From the IMG/VR virus record IMGVR_UViG_3300008267_006330, positions 1 through 53,108 of that record: a stretch of DNA of 53,108 nt, one strand, 5' to 3'. Below are positions 2,840-10,946 of the stretch, piece by piece. The stretch is from a virus. Its lineage: Duplodnaviria; Caudoviricetes. Numbering within the stretch: the stretch's first letter is position 1; every line of letters starts with the position of its first letter. The position numbers were made by a program, and so were the translations under genes. Under the pieces are notes generated by a model that saw only the letters and a program-made list of their open reading frames with translations, made no database searches and was not told where the DNA came from.

Positions 2840-3557
2840 CTGCACTCACAATTTGGTGGTTGAGCATGTATTGTAACACATGTTTTGCCCAAAAGCAATG
2901 GGCTTCCTTACCAAAATGGTATCCAAACGGTCTAGTATGCTCAAATCCGTTGTTTTCTAACACAGCATTGTAACTAGAACTTCGAAGGTATGGATCAATA
3001 TAGTCCACTTCCCAATCCTTTTGATCCTGAATGTCACTGAATGTACTGTACCCGCTAAAGAACAAATGCTTAATACCTTGCGCTTTTAGTTCACAATGCA
3101 ACTCCCAAATAGCTTGATGAGCCTGTTGTGTTTTTTGATGCCAATCAACTTCAGTCACGTACTGTTTGTAGCGGTCTTGCCATTCTGGTGGAACCATATC
3201 AATACCACTGGCATTGACTTGATACCAGTAGTTGGACTCTGTATGGAACCATTCTTCGCGTTCCCACGTGGTCCATTGTATGACCATGAACGTGTTGGCC
3301 AGTTTATCAGGATTGTTTTTGATCCACTCACGGGTGGTTCGTATGATTCTTGGATTACTACCGCCGCTTTGGGCATCACAATAAAATTCTGTAGCACCCA
3401 ACATTTCTGACAGTTTCTTACCCCAACTGACTTTTAAGTTTTCAGGATGAGGAACTTGCCCCCAACCATAATAGTCTGGATCATCTTCGGCCCAGGCATG
3501 TTCTACATTGGCATCGCAAGCGGCGGTATGGCTACAGCCGTTAACATACAAAATCAT
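2820..3557 (-). CDS. SGNH/GDSL-hydrolase-like protein
   Basis: N-terminal NGCSHT, GGSN block, C-terminal His (YHF); paralogous to 5185-5844 and 29677-30483. Confidence 0.55.
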   Translation of the reverse strand: MILYVNGCSHTAACDANVEHAWAEDDPDYYGWGQVPHPENLKVSWGKKLSEMLGATEFYCDAQSGGSNPRIIRTTREWIKNNPDKLANTFMVIQWTTWEREEWFHTESNYWYQVNASGIDMVPPEWQDRYKQYVTEVDWHQKTQQAHQAIWELHCELKAQGIKHLFFSGYSTFSDIQDQKDWEVDYIDPYLRSSSYNAVLENNGFEHTRPFGYHFGKEAHCFWAKHVLQYMLNHQIVSADEIPTD

Positions 3558-4416: not shown

Positions 4417-5188
4417 TTACTTCCCCCATCCGTTGCCCCAAAGGTCAACGTGTAACCTTGGAGTATACCAATAACCACGCTTGAGTGCTTCGTCTGCTAC
4501 GTGTATACGTGTGCCATCATAAACACTGACAACACCACCCAATGGCATCACAAATACTGGCCCGCTAAAGCCGCGATTGCGATAGTCGTCTACAACTACA
4601 TCAAGTTCTGCAAAGTCATCAATGTGACCCACAACAAATTTTAGATAGGTAATACCATAGGTTTCGTAGTCCCAAATGATGTCGGGTTTGATAGCATCTT
4701 CATACTTCTCTCCACTTAACGTGAGTTTGGGACTTACTGAGAACACAATCTCACCAAGCCAGTTGTTGAGATATGTTTTGAAATCACGATGTAGTTCTTG
4801 GGTACCATTGGTCTCAAATGTAATATGACGCAATCCACGCTCGTGCTGGGTTGCCGTTTGGCTGTTGCCAGTTACCATGTGGCAATAGCGCCGCCATCTT
4901 GTCCACAAGCTCATCTGCTGTGTATGTTGGGCTTAGGTGTTTGAAGTCTGGATGCCAGCTTGCATAAGAATCACATCCAGTGCTAACAAGCGGAAGCTCT
5001 TCAAACGTTTTGTACAAGTGTACACTCTTTGCCACTTCGTCTGCTTCGGGGCTCTTCTCCCCGGGCTTGCATCCAAAACCTGAGCAGGTAAAGTTACAGC
5101 CAAACATACGCAAGAAAATACTTGGTACGCCCACATAACGACCTTCGCCTTGTGCTGAATAAAATAGTTCACTTACTTTGAATTTCAT
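4417..5188 (-). pseudogene. queE: 7-carboxy-7-deazaguanine synthase QueE, split by a frameshifting deletion near 4846
   Basis: N-half has FYSAQGEG and FLRMFGCNFTC...GCDS; C-half in another frame has ITFETNGT, SVSPKL, YLKFVV, PRLHVDLWGN; the TGGEP motif is missing at the junction. Confidence 0.85.
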
Positions 5189-5844
5189 AGTCTTGTTACC
5201 TTTGTCATGCCCGACTTGCGGGGATCTTTATTTAGATTGATACTTTCTTCATGCATTATAACACGAGTAGATTGTTTTGTCACCCAGCCCGGCAATACTG
5301 CATCTAAATAGGCCAAATGCTCTGCTGGACTAGGATGCGGATCACCATCTCTGTTGGGCCAACTGTTGGGAAACAGTACAGCCTTGTAACTGGGCAGGAT
5401 AGAGTCTACAATATCTTGATAGATATTTAGAGAATCAATAGTGTCCATGGACAAAAATCTCCACTGTGTTTTTCGATTTTCTAATAGTGTTTTCACTGCT
5501 TTGATGTAGGCCAACGTTTTTATCAGTAATCCGCGTTCGTCAACGTGAGTTTCAAGATATTCTTTATTGTAGATTGGGCACGTAAACATGTTGCCCAGTG
5601 TGTGCCAGCGACCGTCTACATATCTATCTTCACGAGTGGCACTAGTCCAACATACAATCACTGTATCATCAGAGTCAAATTTATTACGCTGATCCGTTTC
5701 CATTACACTATTGAATATAAACTCATTGCCTGCGCCACTTTGCGCCCAGTTTTCAAAATAATCAAATTCTGGGGCAAGGCAATCGGCCCAGGTACTCCAG
5801 CGGTAGTTTGTAAAACTACAGCCAAATGTAAACAGTCGGCGCAT
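5185..5844 (-). CDS. SGNH-hydrolase-like protein
   Basis: FGCSFT, SGAGN and DPHPS motifs. Confidence 0.6.
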   Translation of the reverse strand: MRRLFTFGCSFTNYRWSTWADCLAPEFDYFENWAQSGAGNEFIFNSVMETDQRNKFDSDDTVIVCWTSATREDRYVDGRWHTLGNMFTCPIYNKEYLETHVDERGLLIKTLAYIKAVKTLLENRKTQWRFLSMDTIDSLNIYQDIVDSILPSYKAVLFPNSWPNRDGDPHPSPAEHLAYLDAVLPGWVTKQSTRVIMHEESINLNKDPRKSGMTKVTRL

Positions 5845-7844
5845 TATGCCGCTAGTTGTTTTACAGAGAACGAGCCTTGTGCCTTGGCAGCGCCCTTACC
5901 ACGCTGAGTTGCCTTGCTGTCAACTGCACCCACCAAATCAACTGTGGCTTTGCCAAAGTTGCGACGTCGAGCAAAATAAAACAACTCTAAAAATCTATTT
6001 AGACTCATGGTTTTGTCTTCGGGGAAATCCAGCCGATACACTGTGGGTTCGTTGACCAAGGGTCGATTGAAACTCAAGTATTCCCAAATGTTATAGTCCA
6101 GAGTCAAATTCATGGGATAGGCATTTCTGTCATCATACTTGATGTAGTAATTTCGTTGAAGACGCATGAGGCTGGCCAGGAGGTCTGCTGGCAACATATA
6201 ACGTTCTAAGAAAGTTTCCAAGAAATCATACAAGTCGTCCACACGGTCTTCTTGGTGCATGTTCATTGAGGTACGATGTATAATGTTCCAACCATGAATC
6301 TCCACACCAATCTTGGGATGATTGATCTTGCCAGTATTCATCCAGTTAGAAAAATATGTTCTGGCTTCGTCTGCTTCTTTCTTCAACCATTCATGAGTCA
6401 TGGCATATTCAAACAGATCTTCGTAGTAATCGTGGTAACTGATGCCTAGATACTTGTTGATAAATCTGGCCACGATGGTAGCAAAGCCATTGATGTGCAT
6501 GGTAGTTTGAAACCATGAAAAAATCTGTGCATCCAACATCACAGGCGTGGGCATGTCTTTTGTGCCTGTTATTACGTCAATACTTTCTTCTATATGCTCT
6601 ACACTGTATGAGCCAGCAAAGTAATCTGTCACAGGCTGACTGGTGATCTTGAACAGTTTTTTCTGTAGCAAGTTCATTTCGGCATTTTCCAACAACTGTG
6701 CCTGGAACACAGTGATACCTGTGTGTTGATTTAGATCATACAAGGCATAGAAGTTTTTCTTCCAGGATTCTAGAGTTTCGCCAGGCAGGCCCAGGATCAG
6801 TTCGGTATAGGCTGGAATGTTGCGTTGATCACACAGTTCAAACACTTCGTTGAGTTTGTTCATCTCCATGTTCTTGCGACGAATGTTTTCCAACACATCC
6901 AAGTCCAAGCTCTGTACACTCAGTGTGAGACCCTGATTGAAGCCTCGAGCATCCAGCAGTTTCTTCACAATGTCAATTACTTCCTTTTTTTGGTTCTTGG
7001 CCCAGGCCACAGAGAAGGTGCGCGGTGATCCATACTTTTCTTGCATCTCAATGATCTTGTCGGCAATCATGCCATCACGTTCGGGGAACATGCCAAAGTT
7101 GGCATCAGTGATTGAGATCCAATCAAAGTTGCGTTCGGCCATCCATTCAAGTTCGTGAAACACTCGGGTGAGTTCAAATTGCTTGACTTTGTTGTAGGTC
7201 AGGCTACCCCAGTCACAAAAAGTACAAGCAAACGGACACCCACGATTGGTTTCCAGGGTGCCTTGCCAGGTTACTTCGGGGTGGTCTGCCATCATTTTAT
7301 CAAATATGCCCGACAGGTAAGGACTGGCCACTTGTTCAAGACTTTCAATACGTTCAGCGTCTTGTGTTTTCACAGCCTCACCGTTGCGATTGATCAACAG
7401 GCCCGGAACTGATTCCCAGTCACCAGTTTCAAAATGTTCCAGCACTCGCTTGAATGTGATTTCACCTTCGTAGCAGATCACCAGATCCATAAAAGGTTCT
7501 TTACGAAACAGATCTGGATCAGTTATTGCAGGTTCTGGCCCACCAAACACAGTCAATACTTTGGGATTGATTTCTTTGATACGACGGGCCAGGGCATAGT
7601 TATAGCGGTGATTCCATACATAGGTACTAAAAGTCACAATGCTATTGATTGCCAGTCGTTGTGCCACAGGTTCCAGCGCATCACGGCGCCAGATCCAGTC
7701 AGTGGCTTCAAAACGTTCACGTATGGCCGGGTCAGCTAGACTATAACTCCATACTACACCTGCAGAGTACGGCAGATAATAGGCGTTGAATTCTTTGGGC
7801 CCTTGCTGAAAATTGGGTTGCACAAAGGCAATGGTATGTTTCAT
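5844..7844 (-). CDS. cobalamin-binding radical SAM enzyme (class B type)
   Basis: B12-binding-like N-terminus (GGPEP, EGE) and RGCPFACTFCDW; start trimmed to MKHTIAF, 4 nt after TAAATA. Confidence 0.85.
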   Translation of the reverse strand: MKHTIAFVQPNFQQGPKEFNAYYLPYSAGVVWSYSLADPAIRERFEATDWIWRRDALEPVAQRLAINSIVTFSTYVWNHRYNYALARRIKEINPKVLTVFGGPEPAITDPDLFRKEPFMDLVICYEGEITFKRVLEHFETGDWESVPGLLINRNGEAVKTQDAERIESLEQVASPYLSGIFDKMMADHPEVTWQGTLETNRGCPFACTFCDWGSLTYNKVKQFELTRVFHELEWMAERNFDWISITDANFGMFPERDGMIADKIIEMQEKYGSPRTFSVAWAKNQKKEVIDIVKKLLDARGFNQGLTLSVQSLDLDVLENIRRKNMEMNKLNEVFELCDQRNIPAYTELILGLPGETLESWKKNFYALYDLNQHTGITVFQAQLLENAEMNLLQKKLFKITSQPVTDYFAGSYSVEHIEESIDVITGTKDMPTPVMLDAQIFSWFQTTMHINGFATIVARFINKYLGISYHDYYEDLFEYAMTHEWLKKEADEARTYFSNWMNTGKINHPKIGVEIHGWNIIHRTSMNMHQEDRVDDLYDFLETFLERYMLPADLLASLMRLQRNYYIKYDDRNAYPMNLTLDYNIWEYLSFNRPLVNEPTVYRLDFPEDKTMSLNRFLELFYFARRRNFGKATVDLVGAVDSKATQRGKGAAKAQGSFSVKQLAA

Positions 7845-7851
7845 ACAGTAT

Positions 7852-8697
7852 TTAAGCCTTGACAGCATGCGGATTCGCAAACTGTACCATCTGACTGTTG
7901 ATGTCATTTTCGGCCAGTTTTTGCCAGGGATCTTGTGTGCCTTTAAAAATATTTTCAAAGAATTCAGTACTGGCACCTTGCTTGCGCATGTGCATGGCTA
8001 ATTTTGCACAGTCTCGATGCCGTAGATCTATCATTTCTCTGCTGTGAAAATCTCTGGGGTCATCGGGTTTACCTTCTAGCATGGGACGATTGGCATAGAT
8101 GTCGTCGTTGTTGTTACCAGTCAAGTCAAATCGATCATGCAACACATCCACATTGATTCGCTGATAGATGTCCAGCATGTATGCCTGCTGACTTACCCAG
8201 CCATCTTGTGTGGGGTGTGGGCTGATATAGCCCAGCAGGTCATACCATGTTCGAGGTACTATGGGAAAGATTGAATAAGGATGCATGCGATGAGTACAGA
8301 AACTCAACAACTTAAATTGCCCTGTATAACTGAGTATAGTAGTATCCCAGCCTTGACTTTGCATCACAGCATCGTCGTTCCAGATCACCAACCAATCACT
8401 GTCGGTTTGTTTGGCCATGGCGTTGTTGTACTTGTGTAAGTTCACATAGCCCATGCGTTCAAACTTCATGGCAGTGTAACTGATGTCACGCTCGTCCATC
8501 CAAGGTTGCAGTTCGTTAACAAAGTACTTGAAACCTATGTCATCATCATTGTCAAAAGCAAACATGATTTGCACACGACTAATGTCGTCGGCCAACTCTA
8601 CCAAACTGCGTATACTGCGACCCAGGCTCTCTGTTCGGCCACGAGTGGCCAATAGCATGGCAATACCATATTCATGTTCTTTCATTGACATCTCCAT
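7852..8697 (-). CDS. GT-A fold (GT2-like) glycosyltransferase
   Basis: LLATRGR first strand, FDNDD, WNDDA DxD-like motif. Confidence 0.7.
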   Translation of the reverse strand: MEMSMKEHEYGIAMLLATRGRTESLGRSIRSLVELADDISRVQIMFAFDNDDDIGFKYFVNELQPWMDERDISYTAMKFERMGYVNLHKYNNAMAKQTDSDWLVIWNDDAVMQSQGWDTTILSYTGQFKLLSFCTHRMHPYSIFPIVPRTWYDLLGYISPHPTQDGWVSQQAYMLDIYQRINVDVLHDRFDLTGNNNDDIYANRPMLEGKPDDPRDFHSREMIDLRHRDCAKLAMHMRKQGASTEFFENIFKGTQDPWQKLAENDINSQMVQFANPHAVKA

Positions 8698-9194
8698 TAT
8701 GCAAACAAATCCTCATTCCATTCACGATGACCTTCACGGAACGCCATGTTAGCCTGTGTTTCACGTACTTCCACTCTATAGCACCACAAACGTGCGGCTT
8801 CACCCGGTCCCCACATCTCAGGAATGTATACGCCATTCACATACTTGTACAGCATATCGCTGAGGCCCTCACAGCCTAGCTTGGGTAACACAACAATCTT
8901 GGCCATGTTCCGCTCTTGTAACAGTTTGAATGTTGCCATCTCAGGATCATCGGCGGCCACAATCAAGGTATGGTCAAACTGGTCTTCTAGGGTTTTCTTT
9001 AGTTCTTTGAGTCCGCCGTAGTCAGCGGCCCAATTGCGCACATCCAAGTCATTGGTTCCAAAGTAGAATTTCATACTGAATGAATATCCATGTATCAAAT
9101 TACAATGACTGTCTGCCCTCCACTGTCTGTACGCACACGGAAATGCGTCGTGGTACTCTTTGGTTGAGGTATATTTGTAAACTACTGGTGTCAT
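8697..9194 (-). CDS. queD: 6-carboxy-5,6,7,8-tetrahydropterin synthase QueD
   Basis: HCNLIHGY (CxxxHGH variant), DYGGLK, FDHT, EVRET; AGGAG RBS. Confidence 0.85.
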   Translation of the reverse strand: MTPVVYKYTSTKEYHDAFPCAYRQWRADSHCNLIHGYSFSMKFYFGTNDLDVRNWAADYGGLKELKKTLEDQFDHTLIVAADDPEMATFKLLQERNMAKIVVLPKLGCEGLSDMLYKYVNGVYIPEMWGPGEAARLWCYRVEVRETQANMAFREGHREWNEDLFA

Positions 9195-9200
9195 GCTGTT

Positions 9201-9270
9201 TCTCCTATGTTAATGTTAGCATAGGCTGGCAGAGTTTGTATAGCGGGATGAACGCCAAAGGCCGCTGTAA
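9201..9270 (-). ncRNA. candidate preQ1-I-like riboswitch with an RBS-sequestering hairpin
   Basis: AGCGG/CCGCU stem with 15-nt loop, A-rich tail AUACAAA, loop UGGC complementary to tail GCCA; CCUAUG/CAUAGG hairpin covers AGGAG; sits directly 5' of queD. Confidence 0.55.
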
Positions 9271-9275
9271 AAGAA

Positions 9276-9281
9276 TATTTA
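9276..9281 (-). promoter_or_regulatory. T4-type late promoter core (TAAATA)
   Basis: Same motif in intergenic position at 829, 7849, 26739, 26759(+), 39129, 40080, 41480, 42474, 47005 and 47060(+). Confidence 0.65.
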
Positions 9282-9285
9282 TTAA

Positions 9286-9690
9286 CTATTTGGGTTGTTG
9301 ATAAGTTTCAGTTTTGTAATTGGCCTGGCCGGCAATTACCCCTCTTACTCCACCAACAGGATCCAAGCAATCACCTTGCTTGCGTGGAATCAAATGTACA
9401 TGTGGATACATCACTGTCTGACCAGCAGCAGGACCCATGTTTAGCCCAATGTTAAATGCATCGCACTCACCACGAGCAACCATTTGTTGACCGGTAATCA
9501 GTGCTGTGCCTAGGCAAACAACAATGCCTTCGTCTGTGTTGTTGCGTGGAACAAACAACAAATGACCTTTGGTTACTGGAAAACGATCTTGGAACACCGT
9601 CACATGTTGAGTACTGAGTGCAGGAACTTCTAGATCCCAGGGTGCCACCTTGCCTTCTTGTGCGGCCTGTAGAGTTGCGTATTTGATCAT
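9286..9690 (-). CDS. HIT-family nucleotide hydrolase
   Basis: FPVTKGHLLFVP and AGQTVMYPHVHLIPR histidine triad. Confidence 0.9.
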   Translation of the reverse strand: MIKYATLQAAQEGKVAPWDLEVPALSTQHVTVFQDRFPVTKGHLLFVPRNNTDEGIVVCLGTALITGQQMVARGECDAFNIGLNMGPAAGQTVMYPHVHLIPRKQGDCLDPVGGVRGVIAGQANYKTETYQQPK

Positions 9691-10433
9691 CTTGGTGCAA
9701 AGTCCTGTTGTAGTTTGATGTTGTCGAAGAATTCTTTCTTCACGCTTTGGTCTGTTTTAAAAGCCCCGCGTAATACCGTTGTCTGGGTAAGACTACTATG
9801 AGCCATAATACCCCGATTCTCACAACATCCATGGGTAGCCTGTATATAAACTGCGACATCCTTGGTCCCGGTTGCCAGTTCAATTTCCCTAGCAATATCC
9901 ATACATAGTTCTTCTTGGAGAGTCCCACGTCGGGCACACCACTGGGCAATGCGAGTGTATTTGGATAGACCAATGAGTTTGGGGCCAGCAATGATTCCAA
10001 TATAAGCCACACCCGCAACAGGTTGGTGATGGTGGCTACACATGCTCTTAAGCTCTGAACGCACCACAAGCATACCGTCGTATGCTCCGTCCGTATCGTT
10101 CGGGAAAGCCGTAGCATTAGGGCTCGTCTCATAACGGCCAGACATGATTTCGTTGAAGTACATTTTAGCAAGACGCCTTGCTGTGCCTTTGGAGTTTGGA
10201 TCATTTTCTCTGTCAATCAATAATGCATCTAGTACACCTTCAAACGCTGTAGTGGCTTCGTCGATCAGTTGCTCTTTCATTGCGTCGTCAATATACTCGC
10301 TAACATTATCGCCAGCCCAGAATCTTTTTCCGTCACGTTTGAATTTAAAGCGAAGGTGATCGCAAACTTTGCCTAGTCCGTAACCGCCATCGCCGGCCAT
10401 TGCGTCTAGTGCTGTTTCTTTGTTATCTGTCAT
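9687..10433 (-). CDS. folE: GTP cyclohydrolase I (fused in frame to the upstream gene in this sequence)
   Basis: SMCSHHH, GLSKYTRI, LQEEL, HGCCENRG; likely native start MTDNK at 10433. Confidence 0.9.
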   Translation of the reverse strand: MTDNKETALDAMAGDGGYGLGKVCDHLRFKFKRDGKRFWAGDNVSEYIDDAMKEQLIDEATTAFEGVLDALLIDRENDPNSKGTARRLAKMYFNEIMSGRYETSPNATAFPNDTDGAYDGMLVVRSELKSMCSHHHQPVAGVAYIGIIAGPKLIGLSKYTRIAQWCARRGTLQEELCMDIAREIELATGTKDVAVYIQATHGCCENRGIMAHSSLTQTTVLRGAFKTDQSVKKEFFDNIKLQQDFAPR

Positions 10434-10946
10434 TTGAACTGCTTCTTCTGGAGTGGGCTTGTAGTGATAGCCAACTCTGAATTCTCGTTGTCCTACCCAG
10501 GGTTTGATATTTAGATCACGACCGTCATACCGCATACAAATAATTGCATCATATGCCGCTCGGTCATCTAGTATTATAGCACCACCACGGCCTATATGTA
10601 AAGGCTTGTCATGCCCAAAACTCAAACATTGCATGGTTCCGGGACGATACATATTGGGCTGAAGTTTACGAGCACTATCCCAAATACGAGTGCCTTCGAA
10701 CTTGTATTCACCGATCCATTGTTGTCTGTGTGGCAAAGAGTCAGGAAAGTAATCATACTTGATTCCTAATTTGTGCATGGTCATTGGAATGCTCAAATAA
10801 GTGTATGGGGTAAAACTACACTCCTTGATCCTATCATACCGTAAACACAGCTCGATAGCATGTGTGCAACAATCGGTCATGACAGCATACGGGGCTCCAG
10901 TAAACTTTGCTAGAGCGTCTTCAAACTGTTTGATTTTTTCGAACAT
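10434..10946 (-). pseudogene. DegT/DnrJ-like PLP-dependent aminotransferase-like gene lacking its stop, fused to folE
   Basis: FEDALAKFTGAPYAV, DCCTHA, WDSA, SFGHDKPL, GRGGAI; reads straight into FolE Met. Confidence 0.65.

Follow-up and report, generated by a model that had tools for sequence, protein, structure and literature searches.

Among the riboswitches described to date, the class I preQ1 (preQ1-I) RNAs are the closest in architecture to the element reported here. As set out in a review of this class, their aptamers are small H-type pseudoknots with a canonical P1 stem and an A-rich L3 that lies in the P1 minor groove, wherein the cytosine before the 3′ strand of P1 pairs with preQ1 (PMC11625349). 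The same review distinguishes these RNAs by the nucleotide that precedes the specificity cytosine, a U in type I as opposed to an A in types II and III, and it places the Shine-Dalgarno (SD) bases within P2, with the ligand-bound state being gene-off (PMC11625349).

The element that we describe resides in the leader of a queD-like gene carried by an uncultured giant phage. Phages modify their DNA with 7-deazaguanines (dPreQ0/dADG) via the pathway to which this gene is tied. Riboswitches are rare in phage genomes according to a 2017 survey, which also allows that phages may use undiscovered classes (PMC5473149). We lean toward the reading that the element is a cis-acting, riboswitch-type RNA located at the 5′ end of the queD mRNA in a clade of uncultured giant phages, and that formation of its pseudoknot switches translation on.

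A candidate pseudoknot aptamer in the queD leader

The window (the whole 53,108-nt stretch of phage DNA that was analysed, IMG/VR record IMGVR_UViG_3300008267_006330) corresponds to about 15% of a giant-phage genome. On its minus strand, a 91-nt leader (9195-9285) separates a HIT-domain ORF (9286-9690) from a 165-aa QueD-like ORF (8697-9194), which matches PF01242 (PTPS, E 8e-15) and phrog_2389 (QueD-like, E 1e-34). The minus-strand sequence quoted in a first-pass annotation of this DNA is present as described, including a 5-bp P1, a loop that ends in C, and an A-rich tail. The features of the leader and the gene are as follows.

9276-9283, minus strand: promoter-like element AATAAATA, ending 9 nt before P1
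9262-9266, minus strand: 5′ strand of P1, AGCGG, identified by covariation
9257-9261, minus strand: L1, CCUUU, identified by conservation
9253-9256, minus strand: 5′ strand of P2 (pseudoknot), GGCG, identified by covariation and an alignment-free test
9247-9252, minus strand: L2, UUCAUC, whose last base, the invariant C9247, abuts the 3′ strand of P1 on its 5′ side
9242-9246, minus strand: 3′ strand of P1, CCGCU, identified by covariation
9229-9241, minus strand: L3, AUACAAACUCUGC, in which an A-rich tract leads into the conserved UCUGC
9224-9228, minus strand: 3′ strand of P2, C(A)GCC (CAGCC in the window), whose last two bases are the first two of the sequestering hairpin
9204-9225, minus strand: SD-sequestering hairpin CCUAUG-CUAACAUUAA-CAUAGG, in which 9225-9220 pairs with 9209-9204
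9192-9206, minus strand: SD AGGAG (9206-9202) and start codon AUG (9194-9192)
8697-9194, minus strand: queD, encoding a phage-type QueD/PTPS-fold protein of 165 aa with the form CxxxHGY (PF01242, phrog_2389)

The candidate aptamer comprises approximately 43 nt (9266-9224), and a covariance model (R1, described below) finds exactly one copy of it in the window. Its P1 strands enclose a 15-nt loop (9261-9247) of which C9247 is the final base. The SD begins about 18 nt after P2, that is, outside the knot. The CCUAUG/CAUAGG hairpin that had been proposed to hide the AGGAG ribosome-binding site (RBS) is found where expected, and it covers the AGG of the SD. Considered as a single sequence, the window leader folds no better than its shuffles (z = +0.5). 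A GCGG:CUGC pairing that appears in the single-sequence fold is not conserved and was dropped because CUGC stays the same in all P1 variants, such that no covariation accompanies it.

Both helices covary among related phages

Relatives were gathered by an IMG/VR protein-based scan with the QueD-like protein of the window, which yielded at least 595 confirmed relatives. The best 80 of these (90-98% amino-acid identity) were used, with loci chosen by QueD protein similarity alone. When the leaders upstream of queD were read from the start codon, compensatory changes were visible before any model had been built. An alignment of 106 distinct copies (A1) was used to build R1. Of the 80 QueD-anchored loci drawn from the best 80 of at least 595 relatives, 76 gave a match to this model. 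Loci L039, L047, L074 and L079, which lack an R1 match, start where the gene does or only a few bases from there, and L055 gave no R1 match at the aptamer score level. Because the A1 rows had been selected for perfect P1 pairing, and those from a pattern scan also had their tail fixed by the pattern, the conservation and P1 figures given here come only from A2, a model-aligned, protein-anchored set of 60 distinct rows. A separate collection of 134 distinct aptamers consists of the copies among the IMG/VR protein-scan and pattern-scan matches listed.

In A2, 99.3% of P1 cells and 86.0% of P2 cells are paired. Changes on both sides occur in four of the five P1 pairs and in three of the five P2 pairs, and thus in 7 of 10 pairs overall. 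The two helices together are 93.2% paired, compared with 85.0 +/- 0.6% in shuffled alignments, and the covariation score is 0.165, compared with 0.055 +/- 0.008; neither value is reached in any of 500 shuffles, controls that carry no correction for the shared descent of these mutually related sequences. Sliding the partners out of register leaves only 31-49% of cells paired. The larger A1 set, for which P1 pairing was a selection criterion, gives the same picture. The first-pass annotation had placed a structured RNA at the head of the queD transcript and had named covariation among the queD leaders of related phages as a check; these compensatory changes, along with the near-exclusive placement of the motif before queD documented below, bear the proposal out.

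Among 53 distinct aptamers, the P1 strands occur as AGCGG/CCGCU (34), AGAGG/CCUCU (7), UGCGG/CCGCA (5), ACCGG/CCGGU (4) and AGUGG/CCACU (1), and two aptamers carry one mismatch. The P2 helices are more diverse in length and include GGCA/UGCC, GGCG/CGCC, GGUG/CACC, GACAU/AUGUC, AUGGCAU/AUGUCAU and ACGAC/GUCGU. Since the length of the loop varies from 13 to 19 nt, P2 was also tested without an alignment. For the 134 distinct aptamers among the matches listed, the duplex between each loop and its cognate tail has a mean energy of -5.34 kcal/mol, compared with -4.16 +/- 0.12 kcal/mol when the tails are permuted (0 of 5000 permutations as low) and -2.72 kcal/mol when they are reversed.

The register of P2 that is common to the family joins GGC(R) in the loop to the bases that come right after UCUGC. 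In the window, this corresponds to the pairing of GGCG (9256-9253) with C(A)GCC (9228-9224), which overlaps the hairpin by two bases. The pseudoknot had originally been drawn as UGGC/GCCA (9257-9254 with 9230-9227). A loop-tail P2 does covary, and in the window this alternative register is as good as or better than that of the family, but the covarying register is GGCG/C(A)GCC.

Near-invariant unpaired bases

In 56 distinct protein-anchored aptamers, taken from the best 80 of at least 595 relatives, the junction C before the P1 3′ strand is present in 56 of 56 and the G-C pair that closes P1 is invariant. The same holds for A43, A46, A48, U50 and G53 of L3 (56/56 each), while C51 and C54 are found in 55 of 56, and several neighbouring unpaired bases are kept in 50-55 of the 56 aptamers. 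All 134 loops of the distinct copies among the matches listed also end in C. Near-invariant unpaired bases are typical of a binding pocket, and the sequence pattern observed here suggests that the aptamer may contain one. L1 CUU and L3 AAA are both invariant, and a possible L1-L3 pairing gives no covariation information either way.

Other positions are free to change. The first base of L1 is C in 22, U in 18 and A in 16 of the 56 aptamers, and is followed by a conserved CU. The base before the junction C is U in 112, C in 15 and A in 7 of the 134 copies among the matches listed. Due to this mixture, no single preQ1-I type fits the family.

Expression platforms and the predicted direction of switching

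The constant aptamer is followed by at least three platform designs, which comprise one SD hairpin and two helices that sequester the AUG. The SD hairpin, CCUAUG/CAUAGG with variants CCUAUA/UAUAGG and CUCUAUU/AAUAGAG, pairs the AGG of the SD. The AUG-masking helices are UGYCRUC/GAUGGCA and UGYCAUUG/CAAUGGCA. When the platforms are folded alone, 122 of the 123 distinct leaders have at least two bases of the SD, or at least two of the AUG, engaged in pairing. In all 123 of these leaders, the helix that hides the SD or AUG shares part of its 5′ arm with the predicted 3′ strand of P2, of which one to six bases lie inside the sequestering fold.

Blocking the bases of the P2 3′ strand weakens the mean stability of the platform from -8.2 to -3.9 kcal/mol over the 123 leaders, and the ensemble cost of opening the region from the SD to the AUG falls from 7.6 to 3.9 kcal/mol when the P2 strand is engaged. 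The opening cost drops by more than 0.5 kcal/mol in 116 of the 123 leaders, and in the window it changes from 5.3 to 3.3 kcal/mol. These small energies derive from a nearest-neighbour model of short helices in which the pseudoknot is represented only as a blocked strand. With the P2 strand blocked, weak minimum-energy folds still pair at least two AUG bases in 93 of the 123 leaders.

We reasoned that if three unrelated platforms share the same overlap with the P2 strand, wherein the knot competes with the sequestering helix, then knot formation should turn translation on, which is the reverse of known preQ1 switches. The feedback repression implied by the first-pass annotation runs counter to this modelled wiring, in which the P2 3′ strand belongs to the anti-SD or anti-AUG strand and a folded knot should expose the start site. 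There is no obvious feedback logic to an ON switch that precedes a biosynthetic gene. Furthermore, the UGGC/GCCA register avoids the hairpin, and in the window the knot and the hairpin could therefore coexist.

Gene association and distribution

A QueD-like ORF directly follows the motif in 130 of the 134 distinct copies among the matches listed. The other four copies precede a cupin, two methyltransferase-like ORFs and one 85-aa ORF. One of these four exceptions is a second, diverged copy in locus L031 (1872-1923; 29.6 bits), which is located about 1 kb upstream of the main copy and directly before a 309-aa SAM-methyltransferase-like ORF, and whose P1 is either shifted or interrupted by one mismatch. 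In locus L040 (2484-2976), the aptamer precedes a canonical 141-aa QueD (CxxxHGH), and a phage-type QueD (CxxxHGY) lies downstream (3001-3489).

Among the matches listed, the carriers are limited to contigs of uncultured phages, mostly from freshwater, and to MAG-binned contigs that look phage-like. When 185,579 species genomes were scanned with a gapped pattern, 15 matches emerged, all on contigs of bacterial genomes, of which five (L216, L219, L220, L225 and L229) score 33-66 bits with R1. The bins that hold these five contigs are assigned to Haliscomenobacter, Chitinophagales, 'Bacteroidetes' and marine 'Rickettsiales'. Behind the motif is a QueD-like ORF in L216, L219, L225 and L229, and L220 ends just after the start codon. 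A full TTGACA-N18-TACATT promoter ends just before the motif in the copy from the marine 'Rickettsiales' MAG. The MAG-binned copies either represent mis-binned phage DNA or provide a hint as to hosts. The remaining 10 matches were taken to be due to chance, as they score no more than 24 bits with R1, and L217, the one that was inspected, has no nearby ORF.

Among 50,697 cultured-phage records, a blastn search with the 78-nt leader (E<=10) returned only chance matches of 18-31 nt, and a 1.2 kb DNA query in distant mode gave no match among cultured phages. R1 likewise had no match at queD in phages Iggy and ACP17. The QueD proteins of these two phages are 44-49% identical to that of the window and both have the HGY form, and their genes sit in FolE/QueE(/QueC/DpdA) clusters.

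Upstream of the element in the window are an epimerase gene and a gene for FolE fused to an aminotransferase-like N-terminus. This fusion (9687-10946, minus strand) contains GTP cyclohydrolase I at residues about 236-410, and the similarity of its extra N-terminal fragment to DegT/LegC-type aminotransferases is limited to their first ~60 residues. Downstream of queD are genes for glycosyltransferase-like, KedN5-like B12 radical-SAM C-methyltransferase and sugar-phosphate nucleotidyltransferase-like proteins. The first of these is a 281-aa protein (7852-8697, minus strand), and the second a 710-aa B12-binding radical-SAM protein (5844-7976, minus strand) that is closest to KedN5-type C-methyltransferases (E 2e-75, below the cut-off). 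Because the glycosyltransferase-like and B12 radical-SAM genes overlap behind queD in one transcription unit, they are probably under the same control.

A QueE-like radical-SAM protein is encoded by a single ORF of 291-314 aa in relatives, and by two overlapping ORFs in the window (4814-5188 and 4417-4914, minus strand). The window version (4417-5188) misses an internal stretch that includes the GGEP-type region, which may reflect a genuine deletion combined with a frameshift, or else a mistake in the assembly. Intact QueE-like relatives match QueE models only partially and below the cut-off.

As the first-pass annotation had noted, queC and queF are absent from the window, and the same is true of a complete relative. 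This 383-kb genome (G001, rated 100% complete, which contains locus L052) encodes FolE and QueD, and about 70 kb from these lies a QueE-like gene. Searches with Pfam models or with Iggy proteins detected no QueC, QueF or TGT/DpdA in this genome, divergent forms of which are possible.

Proposed mechanism and ligand candidates

In the mechanism that we propose, an upstream promoter would start the transcript at approximately the first base of the aptamer. This RNA would then fold as an H-type pseudoknot, with P2 joining the hairpin loop to the bases after UCUGC and the A-rich L3 probably positioned in the minor groove of P1. The invariant C would be located at the P1/P2 junction, the place at which the guanine-like face of the ligand is paired in preQ1-I aptamers. 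The P2 3′ strand also starts the strand predicted to pair with the SD, as in the window, or, in other subgroups, with the AUG, and the knot would pull this masking strand away. The RBS would thereby open, permitting the translation of QueD and of the overlapping downstream genes.

From the invariant junction C, we infer that the ligand carries a guanine-like face. The likeliest trigger would be a guanine-edged small heterocycle, either a 7-deazapurine (such as CDG, preQ0 or 7-deazaguanine) or a pterin (such as the FolE product). Neither preQ0 nor preQ1 is an expected product of the phage, given that the complete relative has no detectable QueC, QueF or TGT/DpdA; its own pathway may stop at CDG or take another route. 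The gene set of G001 is suggestive of a route to a 7-deazapurine or pterin other than the dPreQ0 pathway known from phages. By a rough weighing of what the junction C and the gene content imply, a 7-deazapurine is a plausible ligand that falls a little short of probable. We are doubtful of a pterin, for example the FolE product in a feed-forward activation, consider it unlikely that a small ligand is absent altogether, and rate guanine or another purine as quite unlikely.

An improbable explanation, which nonetheless fares best among the alternatives, is that the RNA is a divergent but true preQ1-I riboswitch that binds preQ1 or preQ0, such as queuosine precursors of the host, and in which only the loops and the platform differ. 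The topology is indeed the same, as are the 5-bp P1 closed by G-C, the invariant C and the A-rich L3. In addition, UC precedes the P1 3′ strand in 112 of the 134 copies among the matches listed, as in type I, and the motif is tied to a queuosine/7-deazaguanine gene. The first-pass annotation had also recognized a class I preQ1 architecture, which stands as far as the topology, the junction C and the A-rich L3 are concerned and does not extend to membership of the Rfam preQ1-I family. Specifically, Rfam gave 0 matches at the gathering score over the whole window, and at E<=10 three diverse copies (window 9100-9400, L020 2895-3010 and L069 2905-3010) matched no riboswitch family, such that the Infernal search against preQ1 models that had been suggested as a check came back empty. 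Matches to SNORA69, MIR394 and emrB-Lactobacillus were set aside as chance-level hits to unrelated families. Other properties also argue against a true preQ1-I riboswitch. The base before the C and the first L1 base are both variable, L3 is 13 nt long with a conserved UCUGC, and the complete relative has no detected QueC, QueF or TGT/DpdA. Moreover, the SD lies outside P2 and the predicted response is ON, as opposed to the gene-off state described for ligand-bound preQ1 switches (PMC11625349).

Rather unlikely, in our estimation, is a leader that operates independently of any ligand, either as a pseudoknot bound by a protein of the phage or of the host (a translational operator or an autoregulatory site) or as a folding device that holds translation at a level that is constant or varies with temperature. 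Translational repression by proteins is known from T4-like phages, and a regA gene is annotated in ACP17. Furthermore, covariation reveals structure rather than ligand binding, and the conserved single-stranded bases would be equally suited to a protein-binding site. However, the combination of a constant, small aptamer with interchangeable platforms is a hallmark of riboswitches, and the junction C, which never varies, and the A-rich L3 correspond to those of a known purine-like pocket. For a motif found almost exclusively before one metabolic gene, a metabolite signal is also a better fit than a general regulator. We continue, on balance, to favor a riboswitch-type RNA whose knot turns on the translation of queD.

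Promoter-like elements and transcripts

A TAnnn[T/A] hexamer precedes P1 by 3-13 nt (mode 7-8 nt) in 116 of the 120 distinct upstream regions. With a hexamer located just before P1, the RNA should begin at about the first base of this stem. At this position, the sequence in relatives is TAAATA, TAAGTA or a full TTGAC-N17-TGTATAAT. A simple sigma-70 scan of the window found no promoter, and the TAAATA promoter of the first-pass annotation is read from AATAAATA and the count of such hexamers among relatives. The AATAAATA, TAAATA and TAAGTA elements resemble the consensus of T4-type late promoters.

A second promoter-like element is nested within one of the platforms. TGnTAnnnT, which is similar to an extended -10 element, occurs in the hairpin loop of 70 of 71 type-A platforms, in 37 cases as TGCTATAAT, and ends 4-8 nt before the SD. 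The hairpin loop of the window holds a degenerate version, TGCTAACAT (9213-9221). Judged by its sequence, the nested TGnTAnnnT looks like an extended -10 promoter, and a transcript started from it would lack both the aptamer and the anti-SD strand. The conservation of the platform may therefore be partly at the level of DNA, and some transcripts may lack the aptamer.

With regard to RNA data, two metatranscriptome runs hold small shares, and RNA-library contigs of relatives (from one library) span the QueD coding region into the aptamer, with one continuing further upstream. This metatranscriptome evidence consists of contigs, and so is silent on transcript start, strand and level. A gap in RNA cover at 9280-9500, which a DNA run covers and which comes from one study only, was rejected as evidence for a transcript start.

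Conservation purely at the DNA level, in the form of promoters and an inverted-repeat operator with no functional RNA fold, would account for promoter-like hexamers that flank and sit inside the element, but is very hard to reconcile with compensatory changes that keep Watson-Crick and G-U pairing in two crossing helices, because G-U pairs make sense only in RNA, and with pairing that follows the strand of the gene.

Comparison with known riboswitches

Several established riboswitches share individual properties with the phage RNA. SAM-II/SAM-V and guanidine-III RNAs are H-type pseudoknot aptamers located in 5′ leaders, and the THF-II or folE motif sits before folE and binds a pterin or guanine-like face. 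The phage RNA shows no Rfam match to these families at E<=10, and differs from them in its conserved bases and its gene association. Rfam 15 contains no family for the phage element, and a search of the main text of freely accessible articles found no description of the motif.

A functional parallel is provided by the adenine (add) riboswitch, which is a translational ON switch that frees the start site. In that RNA, as is predicted for the phage element, aptamer pairing stabilised by the ligand removes part of the strand that masks the SD or AUG, and the ligand is read by a single specificity pyrimidine. The add aptamer, however, is a three-way junction with no pseudoknot, and the two RNAs have no relation in sequence or fold.

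The most extensive likeness is to preQ1-I RNAs (RF00522). Both are H-type pseudoknots of similar small size in which P2 is formed by the loop and the 3′ tail, and in both a 5-bp P1 is topped by a conserved G-C pair, with a cytosine placed directly 5′ of the P1 3′ strand. The phage RNA also has an A-rich L3 directly after P1, and lies upstream of a 7-deazaguanine/queuosine biosynthesis gene. It differs in that L3 is 12-13 nt long, with the conserved UCUGC between the A-rich tract and P2, the loop is 13-19 nt, P2 is 4-7 bp, and the dinucleotide that precedes the 3′ strand of P1 is variable. The platform of preQ1-I switches belongs to the knot, through SD bases in P2, or is a terminator. In the phage RNA, the SD is not contained in P2, whose 3′ strand instead overlaps the anti-SD or anti-AUG strand, and the predicted outcome is ON rather than OFF. 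By analogy in topology and at a few positions, the phage RNA may work like a preQ1-I-type aptamer, but it is not filed here as a member of that family.

The general description of a riboswitch, in which a conserved and covarying aptamer in the 5′ leader is joined to variable platforms that control the start site, applies to this phage family. The RNA is a preQ1-I-like pseudoknot that has its own L3 and wiring and is restricted to phages, and there is a fair chance that it belongs to a separate class with another ligand. We tentatively raise the more specific possibility of a distinct, phage-specific class that has a preQ1-I-type pocket, senses CDG, 7-deazaguanine or a FolE-derived pterin, and activates a pathway that proceeds without QueC, QueF and DpdA. 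If so, it would be the first riboswitch to be both widespread and known from phages alone, and it would act as a natural sensor of an intermediate in phage nucleobase modification. If a metabolite is bound, the RNA would constitute a compact natural ON switch, offer a handle on the deazapurine or pterin made by giant phages that lack QueC or DpdA, and exemplify an aptamer fold that has been re-wired from OFF to ON.
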